Source of the DNA: Promethearchaeia archaeon
GTDB lineage: Archaea; Asgardarchaeota; Lokiarchaeia; Sigyniarchaeales; SOKP01
Length of the DNA stretch: 64,000 nt
NCBI GenBank assembly: GCA_029856045.1
Contig: JAHQWG010000035.1
Location: forward strand, 73,213-137,212
Direction of reading: 5' to 3'
Both the position numbers and the translations under genes were made by a program. Shown in pieces: positions 5,836 through 40,992 of the stretch (positions are counted from its first letter, which is position 1; the number at the start of each line of letters is the position of its first letter). The notes beneath the pieces were generated by a model. It saw only the letters and a program-made list of their open reading frames with translations. It did no database searches and had not been told where the DNA came from.

Positions 5836-7092
5836 TTATATAGGAGGGCCTTTTTCCGGATGCCTTTTATTTAATTTTAAAATTTGAAAATCGCTCCTAT
5901 TTATTATATTTGTATAGTTCTCTAAAAGATTAAGTGGATAAGTATTTATGGTAAATTTGAGTGGATCTGAATGCAAATTATGAGGAACTATATCTCGAAA
6001 ATCTTCCAGACTTACATTAAAATGATGTTCCTTTTCATTTTTTAGGTCAATAATTACAATTTCACTTTCATCTGATTCTTCAATTTCTTTCCCAACTGAG
6101 ATATCTTGAACAATATCAGACTTAATTATTAGCGCATCAAACACAACACCTTCAATTACTTCTTTTATCAATTTTGATGAGTTTACTAAACTTTTGAATC
6201 CTGAAATTCTCTTTTTACCGAAAATATGATTTTTAACCTGATAATTAATTGTGCTCATTTTAATTCCAATCTTATCACAAATGCTTGAGATCGAAACGGA
6301 ATTAATATTTTTAGCAGTTATTGTTAAGGTGGTCACCACACCTGCGATTACATCATCTTTTGTATTCTTGATAAATGGCCAAAATTTCAGCAGTATAATA
6401 TTTGCAATTTTAATGAAATCATTGTTAAAATTAAAGGATAAACAAATTTCATTTATTTTTTTAAGGATCAATTGTTTTCTATCTCTCCTAGCGTAAGCTG
6501 GATAATAGCGAGATGCTTCCATTAAAATCTCTTTAAAATCGCTTTTACTTACGTTTAAAATGTTTATAAAATGTGGAATTTCGAAATTAATTGCTTTTAC
6601 TTTTGAAACCATAAAGAGAATAACGGGTACTAACTTCTCTGGTGCCCTTCCTTTAGTTCCTTTTTTTAAATTTTTCCAAACATTCTTAAAAACGAAGATA
6701 CAATCAGATTTTAACGAGATAGGAAGATGTAGAGCAGTTATAATACGATTAAATTCGGAATCAGCTATTTGAAGTACAAAATTTCTATATCCATTAGAAA
6801 TCCTTTGCATCTTTGACATTCGCTCTAACTCATATGAGCGTGAATTTGCTCTCCTTTCTAAATTAGTCCCTAATTTTGTTGTTTTCTTAAGTTCATTAGA
6901 ATAAACTTGAATTGAATCTTGATTATAGGGAGAGTTATATCGAAAGATCGGTAAATCTAATGTTAATCCACAATTTCTACAAACATAAACACCACCAGAC
7001 TCGATAATGTCTTCTGATCTACAGCCGTCACAGAAAAATCCAATCGTTTTTTCCGGTAAATCAAATATTTGAAGGTTTTTATTAAACATCAT
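5836..7092 (-). CDS. Divergent TFB/TFIIB-like factor (Zn ribbon + two cyclin folds + C-terminal tail)
   Basis: CDGC..GVYVCRNCGL zinc ribbon; EFNRIITALHLP first cyclin repeat; second repeat ending in HTH SISSICDKIGIKMSTINYQVKN. Confidence 0.75.
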   Translation of the reverse strand: MMFNKNLQIFDLPEKTIGFFCDGCRSEDIIESGGVYVCRNCGLTLDLPIFRYNSPYNQDSIQVYSNELKKTTKLGTNLERRANSRSYELERMSKMQRISNGYRNFVLQIADSEFNRIITALHLPISLKSDCIFVFKNVWKNLKKGTKGRAPEKLVPVILFMVSKVKAINFEIPHFINILNVSKSDFKEILMEASRYYPAYARRDRKQLILKKINEICLSFNFNNDFIKIANIILLKFWPFIKNTKDDVIAGVVTTLTITAKNINSVSISSICDKIGIKMSTINYQVKNHIFGKKRISGFKSLVNSSKLIKEVIEGVVFDALIIKSDIVQDISVGKEIEESDESEIVIIDLKNEKEHHFNVSLEDFRDIVPHNLHSDPLKFTINTYPLNLLENYTNIINRSDFQILKLNKRHPEKGPPI

Positions 7093-34313: not shown

Positions 34314-35534
34314 TCAGTAAACAAGATCCACTATTTTTTCTGCTTCAGGAATTAATTGTAGTTTAGGATTTAATTTTCCTTTTTCTAGATTAAATATTAT
34401 ATGATCTTCAAATAATTCTCCTGATGGTGTGATAACTCTTTTCCAACTTGGAATATATCCTCTAACTTTAAATCCAACATCACAAAATATTCTTTGATGA
34501 TTAGGTTTATAGGCTGATACAAAACATTCAATATAACGAACTTTTTTTTCAGAAGCATATCGTTTAAGTTCTTTAAGTAAGACAAACAATTCAATATCAT
34601 TATTCACATTATACTTAATCTTTTCGATGTTTTCAACAGTTGGTGTATATAAGAATTTGATATTGGAATCTGTTTCTAAAATCTTAATTATAACCTTATG
34701 ATATCCAAATTTATCAATTTCTTCATAAATTTTTACACTTTTTCTATTCCAAATCTTCCTATCTAAATTAAAATCATATTGAACTATTGGTTCTAAATAG
34801 TTTGCCTCTTCAAGATTATATTGTTTTTGAATAAATGAATATATCTTATTTATCTCTGGTATTAGAACAGGATTTTTTTTCCGTAAAGAAGATAAAACTT
34901 TCTCTGAGTAAATTGTATGGAAGATATCTGATTCTATATTATTTAAGAAAATATCCTTATTAGGTAGAAAAGCTAAGGGTTTTATACCACAGATATTTGC
35001 TAAATATTGTGATTTTATATGAGCTGTTCGACATTCTGCGTACCATATATAAATAATATTTTTGAATGTACCCCACATTCCAATCATCGAGCCAATCATT
35101 AATTTCTTAACATTTGTAATTTTCTGATATTTCTTTTTTACTAATAACCCTCTCATATAACCTTTTTTTTGTTTTCTATTTAATACGTAAGTAAAACATC
35201 CTATAGTCTTTCCTCTAGGTGTTCTGAATAATACCCAATAATAATTTTTATTCAAAATCATCTTTTGAACTTCTACCGGATCTTCCATTTCTTTATAAGG
35301 ATATGTACCGTTATAGCAATCTTTATAAATTTCAGTTATATCATAGGCATCTTCAGGTGAAGCTAAGGTCAAACAGCAATCTAACCTATCTAAATTTTTA
35401 TCAATCTCGAAATTTAATTCCATATTTTCAGTTAGATCTGGATTAACTCCAATTTTAGTAAATTTTTCAATAAATTTTTCTGTAGAATCTGAGGTTATCA
35501 ATTTGGTTTTTATTATAAAACTACTTGAAGCCAT
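34314..35534 (-). CDS. Tandem GNAT acetyltransferase-like protein
   Basis: ASPEDAYDITEIYKDCYNGTYPY, LLVKKKYQ, YAECRTAH.KSQ, GFKVRGYIP. Confidence 0.7.
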   Translation of the reverse strand: MASSSFIIKTKLITSDSTEKFIEKFTKIGVNPDLTENMELNFEIDKNLDRLDCCLTLASPEDAYDITEIYKDCYNGTYPYKEMEDPVEVQKMILNKNYYWVLFRTPRGKTIGCFTYVLNRKQKKGYMRGLLVKKKYQKITNVKKLMIGSMIGMWGTFKNIIYIWYAECRTAHIKSQYLANICGIKPLAFLPNKDIFLNNIESDIFHTIYSEKVLSSLRKKNPVLIPEINKIYSFIQKQYNLEEANYLEPIVQYDFNLDRKIWNRKSVKIYEEIDKFGYHKVIIKILETDSNIKFLYTPTVENIEKIKYNVNNDIELFVLLKELKRYASEKKVRYIECFVSAYKPNHQRIFCDVGFKVRGYIPSWKRVITPSGELFEDHIIFNLEKGKLNPKLQLIPEAEKIVDLVY

Positions 35535-37040: not shown

Positions 37041-37739
37041 TTATTTTTTAATTATTTTATCTATTAAGTCCTTTATAACATCAGATGATTTTCTCAGACT
37101 TATAAATCCAACTAAATGAAGACTTTTAAAAATTTTATTTTTTACTTGATAATTTACTGTGCTCATTTTAATTCCTATTTTATTACATACGTGTACAAAA
37201 GGGATGGAATTTATTCCCAATGCAATCATTGTTAAAATAAAAATTACTCCCACTATTACATCATCTTTTGTATTTTTTATATAAGGCCAAAATTTTTTAA
37301 AAATCTCTTGAGATTTATTAGTAAAACCTTTGTCAAATCTAAAAATTTCTTTTATTTTGTTTATTTTTTTGATAATAACGGTCTTTCTATCTCTTTTAAA
37401 ATAAGTCGGATAAAAAATCGCTGCTTGCTTTAAAATTTCAGTAAATTCTTTTTTATTTGAATTGATCTTTTCTATAAAATCAGCAATTCTAATATCAAAT
37501 CCTTTTGCTTTAAAAACCATATAAATTATTACTGGGGCTAACTTTTTTGGTGACCTTGATTTAGTTCCTTTTCTCATCTGTTTCCATATCTGTAAAAAAA
37601 TCTGAAAACATTCTTCATATAAGTTTGGATATTTTGCCAAATCCAAAATAATTATCAATTTGTTTAAAATTAATTCAAAACTATCAATTACAGTTTTCTC
37701 ATAGTAAGAATATTGAATAAATTGTTCAGATTTGCTCAT
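37041..37739 (-). CDS. TFB-like protein with cyclin folds only (no Zn ribbon); paralog of 5836-7092
   Basis: Shares KGTK.R.P.KL.PVI, RDRK..I.KKIN, KFWP.IKNTKDDVI.GV and KIGIKMST.NYQVKN with the upstream paralog. Confidence 0.75.
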   Translation of the reverse strand: MSKSEQFIQYSYYEKTVIDSFELILNKLIIILDLAKYPNLYEECFQIFLQIWKQMRKGTKSRSPKKLAPVIIYMVFKAKGFDIRIADFIEKINSNKKEFTEILKQAAIFYPTYFKRDRKTVIIKKINKIKEIFRFDKGFTNKSQEIFKKFWPYIKNTKDDVIVGVIFILTMIALGINSIPFVHVCNKIGIKMSTVNYQVKNKIFKSLHLVGFISLRKSSDVIKDLIDKIIKK

Positions 37740-37760
37740 GAATAGTTTTTAAATTAAAAA

Positions 37761-37775
37761 TATTTAAATAAAAAA
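37761..37775 (-). promoter_or_regulatory. T-tract + TATA promoter motif
   Basis: Minus strand T6-A-TTTAAATA; TATA 29 nt before ATG 37739. Confidence 0.6.
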
Positions 37776-37786
37776 GAGATTTACTT

Positions 37787-38950
37787 TCATAAGTTAAGTA
37801 ATATTGGACTTTTAGGAATTTTAACTTCCGACATTATTTCTTTTTTTAAATTGTTGTCATAACGGAACTCATTACATTTATATTCCTCTAAATTTAGAGA
37901 AAATGGATAATAAAACTTACATATTGAATGATAAATAAATTGGAACCAGAGATATGGAATTTTTTTCAACATGTTATTATCATCTTGTTCAATATTATAG
38001 AAAATAAATCTCAAATCTTCAAATCCATTTTGTGTTAATGAATTTAAAGGAGGAAATGACTCATATTTCAAAAGATCTAATGATAAATTAGAATTAGGAT
38101 TATTTAAAATGAGAATTAACTTATTTTGGAAATTTTTTTCTATGTTTTTTCTTAAAATGAATTTTATAATAAAAATTGAAGAAATTATTTTTCTTAAGAA
38201 GATAGGAAGCGTAATAGGAAATTTAATTAAAAAAATTCCCTCCTGTATTTTATCAAGAGTCCAAGACTCAATATTAATTTCATTTAAATCTTGCATAATC
38301 ATGTGAAAATTTATATGATACAACAATTGGTATAAAATCGAGATGAATTTATCATTTATTTTTGAGCCAAAATGTTTCAATTGGTTGATATTTTTATTAC
38401 CAGATATGAAGCTCTCAAATGGATCGTTATTTAATAATAGAGTTTCAATCTCTATTGCTTCTATTTCGGTTAATTTAAATATAGATTTTAAAATTTGCGT
38501 AATTGAATTATACCAAATAAAAGGATTAATCTTTGAAGGACGAACAAATAAGTTTTGATACATATCTGAATTAAAATAAATAGTATTTACTTGAGATTTA
38601 AATATATTATGGCGAAAAAGTTCATTATTAAAATCAAAAATCACAACCGAATGATTTTTCATATTAATAATACCCAATTCTTTATCTTCCTGAAATAATT
38701 GAACATATTGAGAAATTAAAAACTCTACCAACTTAGTTTGATCTTGAAAGTGATGAATTTTGCTTGAAATAAAGATGTTTTCTTTTTTAAATACTCTATG
38801 AATAAGAGAGTAAAACACAAATGGGTTAAGATAATAGATTTTTTTTTTTGATGATTTCTGAAAAAATCTTTGCCTATTTTTGAAGTTTCTTATTAATTCC
38901 CAATCAGTTTTTTGTAATCTATTGGATATTTTACTGAAATTTTTAATCAT
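37787..38950 (-). CDS. Hypothetical protein, possibly a highly degenerate HerA/VirB4-like fold
   Basis: NIFISS, VVIFDFNNEL, INPF, GIFLIKF, LILILNN occur in HerA-like order. Second Met (38950) sits 32 nt from the promoter motif. Confidence 0.5.
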   Translation of the reverse strand: MIKNFSKISNRLQKTDWELIRNFKNRQRFFQKSSKKKIYYLNPFVFYSLIHRVFKKENIFISSKIHHFQDQTKLVEFLISQYVQLFQEDKELGIINMKNHSVVIFDFNNELFRHNIFKSQVNTIYFNSDMYQNLFVRPSKINPFIWYNSITQILKSIFKLTEIEAIEIETLLLNNDPFESFISGNKNINQLKHFGSKINDKFISILYQLLYHINFHMIMQDLNEINIESWTLDKIQEGIFLIKFPITLPIFLRKIISSIFIIKFILRKNIEKNFQNKLILILNNPNSNLSLDLLKYESFPPLNSLTQNGFEDLRFIFYNIEQDDNNMLKKIPYLWFQFIYHSICKFYYPFSLNLEEYKCNEFRYDNNLKKEIMSEVKIPKSPILLNL

Positions 38951-39688: not shown

Positions 39689-39813
39689 ATTAAAAATTTC
39701 TTGCTTTAAATTAATTTAAGAGGAAAATATTAACTATTTTCAATTATTCTAATTTTTTCTTTTAAATATCTTCATTGTATAATTATTTCAAAATTTAAGA
39801 AATTTTGATAATA

Positions 39814-40992
39814 ATGACAGAATTAAAATTAGTGAAAGGCATTCAAGCGAGACATATTAAGATTTTTACAGAGAACGGTATTACTACAGCAGAAGCTCTT
39901 GCTATGTCTGGTTTTAAGAGTATTACTGCAATGGAAGGTATTGGAGAAGCAACTTCTAAAAAACTTATTTGGAATGCCAGAAGTGCTTTGGGAATGAGTA
40001 GTTTTAAAACAATATCAGAGTTCCAAGAAAATCATGAATATATTAGCACAGGTTCTTTAAATTTTAATGCAATTTTAGGAGGTGGTATAGAAACAGGTTT
40101 TATAACAGAAGTTTTTGGTCCATTTAAATCCGGAAAGACCAATTTAGCGCACACTTTGTGTGTTACTACACAATTACCAAAAGGAAAAGGTGGATTAAGT
40201 GGTGCTGTGATTTATATTGATACCGAAAATACATTTTCGAAAGAAAAAATCAAACGAATTACCAAGAGATTTGGTCTTAAACCCGAAAATGTACTCCCGC
40301 ACATTTTTCATGCGAGAATTTATAGTTCCGATCATCAAGCTCAAATGATTTTGGAAGCGGAGAAACTCGTAAAAGAAAAAAATGTTAGAATAATAATTTT
40401 AGATAGTTTAATGGCGCTTCTTCGAGCAGAATACATCGGAATTGGAATGCTTCCACAACGACAAGCTACATTAAATCAAATGATTCATGCTCTTTCCAGA
40501 ATTGCAGAGAGTTATAATATAGCGATCCTTGTAACAAATCAGGTTGCCCAACAAATAAAGGGAATGTTCAGCGGTATTGATGCAATTGGAGGGAATATCG
40601 TCGCTCATGGTTGCCAGATTCGGGTGATGTTTAAGACAAAAGGGTTCGCCGCGAATAGTTCTCTTGAAAGAAAGGCAATTATTGTTGATGCACCTGATTT
40701 ACCTCCTGAGGAATGCCAGTTTTATATAACTCCAGCAGGGATCTCAGATACAGAGAAAATAGATTTTTCAAGTATGGAAGAAAATATAGAACCCAAATTT
40801 ATTATGGCTAATGATGAATTTACCTTAGAAAAAATTAGAGGAATAGGAAAAAACATAATGGAGAAATTGGAACAAATAGGAATTACTACTACTGAGCAAT
40901 TGAAAGATACAAATCCCGAAGATCTTGCTAAAGATTTGCCAGGTATTTCAAGTAAAAAAGTAAAAGAATGGATTGAACAAATTCCTGCTTAG
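39814..40992 (+). CDS. radA: RadA/Rad51-family recombinase with extra C-terminal HhH domain
   Basis: N-terminal HhH, ISTGS..LGGGIETG.ITEVFGPFKSGKT, YIDTENTF, ILDS..LRAEY.G, RQ..L, VTNQV, IGGNIVAH. Confidence 0.9.
   Translation: MTELKLVKGIQARHIKIFTENGITTAEALAMSGFKSITAMEGIGEATSKKLIWNARSALGMSSFKTISEFQENHEYISTGSLNFNAILGGGIETGFITEVFGPFKSGKTNLAHTLCVTTQLPKGKGGLSGAVIYIDTENTFSKEKIKRITKRFGLKPENVLPHIFHARIYSSDHQAQMILEAEKLVKEKNVRIIILDSLMALLRAEYIGIGMLPQRQATLNQMIHALSRIAESYNIAILVTNQVAQQIKGMFSGIDAIGGNIVAHGCQIRVMFKTKGFAANSSLERKAIIVDAPDLPPEECQFYITPAGISDTEKIDFSSMEENIEPKFIMANDEFTLEKIRGIGKNIMEKLEQIGITTTEQLKDTNPEDLAKDLPGISSKKVKEWIEQIPA

Follow-up and report, generated by a model that had tools for sequence, protein, structure and literature searches.

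A ribbon-less TFB-core paralogue behind a T-tract promoter in a Lokiarchaeial genome: a possible feedback competitor of a ribbon-bearing sister

A gene of 232 codons in a Lokiarchaeial genome of 3.34 Mb (approximately 27% G+C) encodes a paralogue of the archaeal transcription factor TFB that consists of the TFB core without the N-terminus that recruits RNA polymerase (RNAP). The gene stands behind a promoter of a T-tract class that is concentrated in one region of the genome, and a ribbon-bearing paralogue of 418 aa is encoded 31 kb away. Both genes lie in the window, by which is meant the whole stretch of 64 kb that was analysed and which forms the end of contig C35. We tentatively suggest that the short protein may compete with the long factor at T-tract promoters and so act as a feedback limit on its programme. 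The features on which the argument draws are as follows.

37041-37739, minus strand: core-only TFB-family paralogue, 232 aa, with two cyclin-like repeats and one C-terminal helix (the short gene)
5836-7092, minus strand: ribbon-bearing paralogue, 418 aa, with Zn ribbon, linker, TFB core and a tail of approximately 100 aa ending in KGPP (the long gene)
37774-37761, minus strand: T-tract and TATA motif TTTTTATTTAAATA, with the TATA box at 37768-37761, read from the sequence and by pattern match
8349-44940: T5-V-TTTWWAWA promoter region, holding 18 of the 19 loose matches in the window and 12 of the 38 strict matches in the genome

Architecture of the short and long proteins

The reading frame of the short gene extends just three sense codons upstream of its start before a stop codon is reached, and the gene upstream ends at 37787, so that a Zn ribbon cannot be hidden 5' of the ORF. 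The 232-aa protein contains neither Cys pairs nor a CxxC, and hence no Zn ribbon, and the B-reader and B-linker are likewise absent. In an AF2 model the first cyclin helix starts at residue 12 and is preceded by poorly ordered residues (mean pLDDT 61 for the first 10-residue block and below 50 for residues 1-3). Met1, in the sequence 'MSKSEQ', falls opposite residue 91 of the 418-aa paralogue, in an internal 'RMSKMQ', a position directly C-terminal to the ribbon/reader/linker region of that protein. The C-terminal tail of the long paralogue is missing too; this loss and that of the B-linker add to what had been listed in the first-pass annotation, a reading of the window from its letters and open reading frames. 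With a pI of 9.9 the short protein is strongly basic, as TFB cores are. Judged by ribbon, reader and linker, the defining features, it is not a functional TFB; it is a TFB-core paralogue lacking the RNAP-recruiting N-terminus.

The 418-aa paralogue, presumed to be the activator partner of the short protein, carries a four-Cys ribbon at its N-terminus. AF2 models this ribbon at a pLDDT of approximately 85 and the core at above 95; the reader is poorly ordered, the linker is a long helix that continues into the core, and the tail is of low confidence. Sampling of 126 genomes of the GTDB family gave ribbon-bearing proteins of this type, of approximately 420 aa, in 91, and sampling of 24 genomes from other families of the class gave none. 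No promoter precedes the Met of 'RMSKMQ' inside the long gene, and production of a delta-N isoform from an internal promoter was rejected on this ground.

Fold and kinship with TFB

Sequence libraries proved blind to the 232-aa protein. No usable domain was found in Pfam (best match DUF2935, E 0.097), NCBIfam or the PDB sequences, and a scan of the whole genome with PF00382, which recovered the four canonical TFBs, missed the ORF, the protein having no score at E <= 1. The assignment to TFB therefore required profile and structure methods. An exhaustive HMMER search yielded a family set of 270 representatives with 30-47% identity to the short protein. The HMM built from these representatives identifies exactly two ORFs of its own family in the genome, those of 418 aa and 232 aa, and also reaches the four canonical TFBs (E 1e-14 to 5e-6). 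The two paralogues are 48% identical over 205 aa (E 9e-63), and the core blocks of the family, KGTKxRSPEKL, YPxYxKRDRK, NTKDDVIAG and MSTxxYQVK, are all present in the short protein. There is also 34% identity to a 340-aa metagenomic protein, P0006, that itself passes the PF00382 cut-off (26.4 versus 23.6 bits). Features in the ESM Atlas lead toward TFIIB clusters, many of them viral (scores 0.92-0.94), and were taken as a lead only; a structure search of the Atlas with the short protein returned nothing above TM 0.38.

The AF2 model of the short protein, generated from a 60-sequence alignment, has a pLDDT of 94.6 and is made up of five plus five helices followed by the C-terminal helix. Foldseek gave TFIIB/TFB cores as the best matches to this model. 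Aligned by VIA-align with 1d3u_B, the TFB core (TFBc) of Pyrococcus woesei in its complex with TBP and BRE/TATA DNA, the model scored Z 15.3 with an rmsd of 3.7 A over 196 of 201 residues. Across both repeats all TFIIB, Brf1 and Brf2 entries gave Z 13-15, and the best structural matches were DNA/TBP-bound TFB/TFIIB/Brf cores (Z 13-15.3). In the model, then, both cyclin folds are present and are set in the TFB arrangement.

The recognition helix

Helices 181-188 and 192-204 of the short protein correspond to the helix-turn-helix (HTH) of repeat 2, at the position that reads the BRE in TFB. The recognition helix is MSTVNYQVKNKIF in the short protein and MSTINYQVKNHIF in the 418-aa paralogue, with 11 of 13 residues identical as against 48% overall. 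When the two proteins are compared helix by helix, identity is highest in this element and lowest in repeat 1 (4/20 in BH1 and 5/17 in BH2). This type of helix is common to the whole family and is found beyond the short and long pair. It aligns with the VTEVT(V/L)R(N/S/T/M)R(Y/C)K of the genome's canonical TFBs, and its base-reading residues differ from those of the canonical TFBs. These results bear out the first-pass annotation, which had described a protein that keeps both cyclin folds and the same recognition helix and lacks the Zn ribbon and B-reader.

A further retained element is the Arg-Ser in the family's K-x-R-S-P, which aligns to the canonical RGRS, a motif linked to the TBP stirrup. 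This one aligned motif, together with the TFB-like arrangement of the modelled repeats, suggests that the short protein may contact TBP. The T-run of the promoters described below may in turn be what is read by the recognition helix of this divergent Lokiarchaeial TFB family.

A local class of T-tract promoters

On the minus strand, the DNA 5' of the short gene runs TCTC-TTTTTT-A-TTTAAATA-(21 nt)-ATG. The TATA box of this T5-V-TTTAAATA motif begins 29 nt before the A of the ATG, the distance that had been given for it at first pass. Archaeal promoters have a TATA element centred approximately 26 nt upstream of the transcription start, and with this general spacing a leaderless mRNA is implied for the short gene.

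In its loose form, T5-V-TTTWWAWA, the motif occurs 19 times in the 64-kb window as against 2.5 expected from shuffles. The genome holds 164 loose matches, 18 of them between 8 and 45.5 kb of the window, a region that makes up 1.1% of the 3.34-Mb genome; the same motif read backwards, as a control, gives 177 and 2 respectively. For the strict form, T5-V-TTTAWATA, the counts are 38 in the genome and 12 in the region, a 41-fold concentration (Poisson P 5e-14), as against 30 and 0 for the backwards control, and this cluster of strict motifs is the only one in the genome. Genome-wide, the motif is no more frequent than its control in G000 and in five relatives. The idea that it might be the usual promoter of the genome was rejected on these counts, the enrichment being confined to one region. 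Several of the matches sit 26-34 nt before start codons.

The class is not confined to one genome. In the homologous region of a congener (G032) there are 10 strict matches in 36 kb and 0 in the control, and within 40 kb around the family's gene in other genera the motif is enriched in 3 of 5 genomes (13, 15 and 8 loose matches versus 3, 1 and 0). The genome's only two family members lie in or beside the T-tract region. Local enrichment here and enrichment near family genes elsewhere together indicate that the promoter class is real, local and tied to the divergent Lokiarchaeial TFB family, and the earlier placing of the short gene under a T-tract promoter therefore stands. No T-tract motif was found within 400 nt upstream of the start of the 418-aa paralogue.

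Among the genes of the region are a VirB4/HerA-like membrane operon, a RadA paralogue and Hef/XPF. There is no dedicated TBP gene in the region; both TBP genes of the genome are on other contigs. A-rich promoters of the form 'AAA-N-TATA' number 0 in the region where 2 would be expected, a difference that is not significant (P 0.13).

A possible feedback competitor

In TFB it is through ribbon, reader and linker that RNAP is brought in and placed, and through the core that TBP and DNA are bound. We propose that the short gene would supply the bare promoter-binding core of the divergent Lokiarchaeial TFB family, and that the 418-aa factor most likely brings RNAP to local promoters in which a T-run takes the usual place of the BRE. 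Given its TFB-like repeats, its Arg-Ser and its near-identical BRE helix, the short protein should bind the same TBP/T-tract complexes and, having no ribbon, reader or linker, it would be unable to bring in polymerase. Since the short gene lies behind a T-tract promoter and the long gene does not, the long factor would be expected to activate the gene of its own competitor. The expected outcome would be a delayed negative feedback in which the competitor limits or ends the T-tract programme, and the presence of the T-tract promoter on one gene and not the other fits such wiring. We regard the role of the short protein as a natural delta-N TFB that limits the long factor's programme as the most likely of those considered, at a little short of an even chance, since the binding, the competition and the timing are all matters that we infer.

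Support by analogy comes from Sulfolobus acidocaldarius, for which a 2026 preprint (Kuo et al.) reports that TFB2 delta-N still engages promoters and cannot recruit polymerase, and that in vivo it competes with the parental TFB2 as a dominant negative over its regulon. This published behaviour of an N-truncated TFB, along with the conserved BRE helix, is the basis on which the short protein may be thought to occupy promoters and shut them off. Taken as a whole the first-pass interpretation, that the protein could occupy the promoters of a regulon without recruiting polymerase and so end the programme, is partly supported.

Phylogeny and the ribbon-less clade

Two trees were built, one with FastTree (140 rows, rooted on canonical TFBs) and one with IQ-TREE under LG+C20 PMSF (54 rows, with the main ribbon-bearing clade of the family as root). 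In both, the short gene falls in a well-supported clade (SH-aLRT 99) whose members almost all lack the TFB ribbon, sister to a small ribbon-bearing clade that includes the window's 418-aa paralogue. Loss of the ribbon is thus old and stable and is not a matter of strain-specific decay. The nearest neighbours of the short protein outside the genus, P0011 and P0012, are core-only proteins of 230-235 aa with 42-44% identity to it, and the N-terminus of P0011, MIQSEKIVPINYYEK, is much like its own. HTH_23/HTH_28 arrays, or a CxxC-x13-CxxxC module with basic repeats, stand in place of the ribbon in other members of the clade, and some have C-terminal ribbons or very long extensions.

The frequency of added DNA-binding domains among these relatives makes a live rival, and the main one, of the idea that the short protein is a gene-specific HTH regulator, either repressor or activator, that reads an operator of its own independently of TBP. 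Membership of so well supported a clade is in keeping with this idea, as are the HTH arrays, Zn modules and long extensions of the clade, which are the architecture of sequence-specific DNA binders, and the strong divergence of BH1 and BH2 in repeat 1, the most diverged part of the protein. The short protein itself, however, has no added DNA-binding domain, its helix is near-identical to that of the ribbon-bearing paralogue whereas most HTH-fused members have changed theirs, and its repeats are modelled in the arrangement of TBP/DNA-bound TFB. We consider an operator-binding role of this kind unlikely, if still deserving of attention.

Orthologues and selection

Within the genus, ribbon-less orthologues of the short gene are found in the genomes of three species, one orthologue being cut by a contig end, and others occur in metagenomes, with identities to the short protein of 99, 90, 87, 86, 84 and 68%. 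It had been pointed out at first pass that a ribbon in all orthologues would speak for strain-specific decay; those at 90, 87, 86, 84 and 68% are without exception ribbon-less and begin with MSKSEQ, which goes against that alternative. The metagenomic orthologues (99, 90, 86 and 68%) are 230-232 aa in length with the same MSKSEQ start. A fragment of 90% identity bears the NCBI name 'Candidatus Lokiarchaeota archaeon'. G032 has an intact 232-aa orthologue (87%) with the same flanks (radA paralogue and GNAT) and with its own long paralogue 27 kb away, and the orthologue in G043 (84%) ends at the contig end. G026 retains only a remnant, in which 95% nucleotide identity begins at nt ~105, the 5' end is unrelated, a 2-bp insertion is present in an A-run and the 3' end is divergent. 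No match to the short gene was found in G103, which is 69% complete.

Over the 232 codons there are no stops or frameshifts in G000, G032, L050, L051 and P0003 (68%), and the gene occurs without indels in contigs of four independent metagenome runs. The 45 nt 5' of the short gene are unchanged in G032, G043 and L051, with a single base altered in L050, as compared with approximately 89% identity of the coding DNA. Values of dN/dS for the short gene are 0.25-0.28 against G032 and 0.24-0.33 against G043; those of the long paralogue are 0.31-0.36, those of the RadA paralogue 0.08-0.11 and those of three neighbouring enzyme genes (two GNAT and one PP-loop) 0.14-0.31. The dN of the short gene is approximately three times that of the adjacent radA and GNAT genes. 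Selection on the short gene is thus purifying, though not strong. The flanking DNA is indel-polymorphic, a 394-aa ORF being deleted in G032, L050 and L051.

No close orthologue was found outside the genus in the GTDB family, all 135 genomes of which were covered. With the orthogroup restricted to one genus and the long type present in 91 of 126 genomes, the presumed regulon would run without the short protein in most relatives, and the 5'-truncated remnant in G026 indicates that the short gene is dispensable. It could be argued from this distribution and this decay, from a dN above that of neighbouring genes and from the polymorphic flanks that the short gene is a truncated duplicate drifting to loss, with no regulatory role. 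Such a view is improbable given the low dN/dS and intact frames, a promoter conserved beyond the coding sequence, the very confident AF2 model and the N-terminus shared with core-only relatives at 42-44% identity.

Partial factors and cyclin-like adaptors

A positive or placeholder role for the short protein was also considered, in which it would pre-assemble or bookmark TBP on T-tract promoters before exchange for the full-length factor, or would form one half of a split TFB whose ribbon is supplied by another gene. The promoters of the long factor would also be bound by the short protein, and in Sulfolobus a partial TFB, TFB3, activates in trans (PMC6101594). TFB3 activity requires the ribbon, however, which the short protein is missing, and in vivo the engineered delta-N TFB acts as an inhibitor (Kuo et al. 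2026 preprint). The split-TFB idea was examined by searching all frames of at least 30 aa in the genome with a family HMM of the ribbon/reader, and was rejected when no stand-alone protein that could complement the core was found; the HMM matched the 418-aa paralogue, the canonical TFBs weakly and a few weak others (E 0.0025-0.23), with the best small ORF at E 0.015. We give little credence to a positive role.

Least probable of all is that the short protein is a cyclin-like adaptor with no part at promoters, pairing perhaps with a kinase or with the nearby DNA-transfer/repair proteins: its fold is a double cyclin box and cyclins A, C and T do match one repeat (approximately 104 residues, Z ~11), but they match both only at an rmsd of at least 15 A where TFB/TFIIB/Brf alone do so at low rmsd, and the most conserved element of this strongly basic protein is an HTH recognition helix.

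Implications of a natural ribbon-less TFB

Alternative TFBs correspond in archaea to sigma factors. Neither a natural equivalent of an anti-sigma factor at the TFB step nor a natural ribbon-less TFB was described in the literature searched, which was incomplete, so that novelty is not proved. A delta-N TFB that is conserved, has a gene of its own and stands under the promoter class that it targets would be such an equivalent. If the feedback reading is correct, the promoter class that the full-length sister activates also drives a core-only TFB, and the old ribbon-less clade, with its frequent HTH domains, would record a shift from initiation factors to gene-specific regulators among the archaea most closely related to eukaryotes. 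The fullest form of this proposal, in which a natural 'anti-TFB' competes at TBP/T-tract promoters and makes an Asgard DNA-transfer/recombination pulse self-limiting while its clade passes from initiation to gene-specific regulation, is more speculative, and we hold it possible with somewhat less confidence than the competitor role itself. The size of the ribbon-less clade shows that loss of the polymerase-recruiting module is recurrent and stable and is no artefact of annotation. The short and long pair, with an altered recognition helix and a T-run where the BRE would be, may also serve as a system in which the partition of promoters among Asgard TFB paralogues can be studied.

Comparison with known systems

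With the archaeal TFB/TFIIB core (PF00382 x2; PDB 1D3U and 1AIS) the short protein has in common the HTH at the BRE-reading position, an Arg-Ser aligned to RGRS and a basic charge. It differs in having no Zn ribbon, B-reader or B-linker and in its recognition helix, which reads MSTVNYQVKNK as against the canonical VTEVT(I/V)RNRYK, and its family adds a 'YPxYxKRDRK' insert between the repeats and an extra C-terminal helix. From the 418-aa type of its own family it is distinguished by the lack of the CxxC..CxxC ribbon and of the KGPP tail of approximately 100 aa.

The closest likeness in architecture is to the engineered TFB2 delta-N, which is also core-only (Kuo et al. 2026 preprint). That protein is a laboratory construct, whereas the short gene is natural, separately encoded and conserved, and has a promoter of its own target class. 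TFB homologues carried by viruses and mobile elements of Asgard archaea (Medvedeva et al., bioRxiv 10.1101/2021.07.29.453957) are similarly TFB-like and outside the housekeeping set. Unlike these, the short gene is chromosomal, in a region that is syntenic within the genus, and a search of IMG/VR viral contigs with two conserved peptide patterns gave 35 pattern matches and zero relatives. The concept of a general-factor paralogue turned inhibitor is shared with TFS4 of Saccharolobus solfataricus (PMC5715097); TFS4 has an unrelated, TFIIS-like fold and acts on the secondary channel of RNAP, whereas the presumed target of the short protein is the promoter.

TFB3 of the Sulfolobales (PMC6101594, PMC6101591) is likewise a truncated TFB paralogue tied to DNA-transfer and repair genes. 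It is an accessory to full-length TFB and activates the ups/ced DNA-damage/DNA-transfer regulon (PMC6101594, PMC6101591), and the T-tract gene set, with its VirB4/HerA-like genes, RadA paralogue and Hef/XPF, resembles this TFB3-controlled DNA-exchange response. The two truncations are opposite, as had been recognised at first pass: in TFB3 the Zn ribbon and a coiled coil remain and the core is gone, whereas the short protein retains the core and lacks the ribbon. A truncation reciprocal to that of an activator leads us to expect that the short protein would have the opposite effect.

Neighbourhood of the short TFB gene

The short TFB gene, which encodes a TFB core without the Zn ribbon, has the following neighbours in the window, the two GNAT genes lying directly downstream of it and the indel block between it and the radA paralog:

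34314-35534, large GNAT-domain protein, 406 aa
35864-37027, large GNAT-domain protein, 387 aa
37787-39688, block of a 394-aa ORF and two small membrane-protein genes
39805-40992, RadA/Rad51-family protein (radA paralog)

In relatives, just the final ~20 codons of the 394-aa ORF are left (…EVKIPKSPILLTLQE and stop), making the block an intra-genus indel polymorphism. The ORF and both small membrane-protein genes are absent from the same-genus genome G032, and two metagenomic contigs lack at least the body of the ORF upstream of the short TFB gene. The matching sites in relatives are L010:1263-1500, L050:100-190 and L051:5880-6000. The RadA/Rad51-family gene is under strong constraint (dN/dS ~0.1) and its product has two Pfam HhH_5 matches, one of them C-terminal at residues 341-392. 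Both GNAT-domain genes have a T-tract promoter match 61-73 nt upstream of the start.

A remnant of the short gene with 95% nucleotide identity was found in G026, another genome of the genus (G026:C204:1430-2250, locus L029). Unrelated DNA stands in place of the promoter and the first ~35 codons, an A-run carries a 2-bp insertion and the 3' end is divergent. The same genome has two copies of the long, ribbon-bearing type (426-aa and 345-aa frames).

T-tract motif in other genera

Genomes of other genera likewise show a concentration of the loose motif T5-V-TTTWWAWA within 40 kb around the family TFB gene: it occurred 13 times against 3 for the backwards control in G120 (L037-L038), 15 against 1 in G047 (L040-L041) and 8 against 0 in G016 (L042-L043). 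No concentration of the motif was seen over the same span in G092 or G053.

Domain architecture of the TFB family

Ribbon-bearing members share a C-terminal extension of ~100 aa with a nearly invariant terminal KGPP motif, seen in the long paralog as:

5836-7092, minus strand, KGPP extension at residues 320-418

This extension has no match in Pfam and is poorly modelled by AF2 (pLDDT 36-65). In two subclades (P0041, P0078, P0084, P0119, P0108 and P0141), the TFB ribbon is replaced at the N-terminus by a CxxC-x13-CxxxC module, after which come repeats rich in K/R/Y/N (…YYRKNKEKI…). A C-terminal CxxC..CxxC pair is present in P0103, P0123, P0132, P0146 and P0148.

Many members of the ribbon-less clade, to which the short gene belongs, carry arrays of HTH_23/HTH_28-type domains N- or C-terminal to the TFB core (P0016, P0019, P0023, P0103, P0136, P0148 and locus L052:2-964), with P0103 matching >25 HTH families. 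The core of a general initiation factor has been fused repeatedly to ordinary DNA-binding domains.
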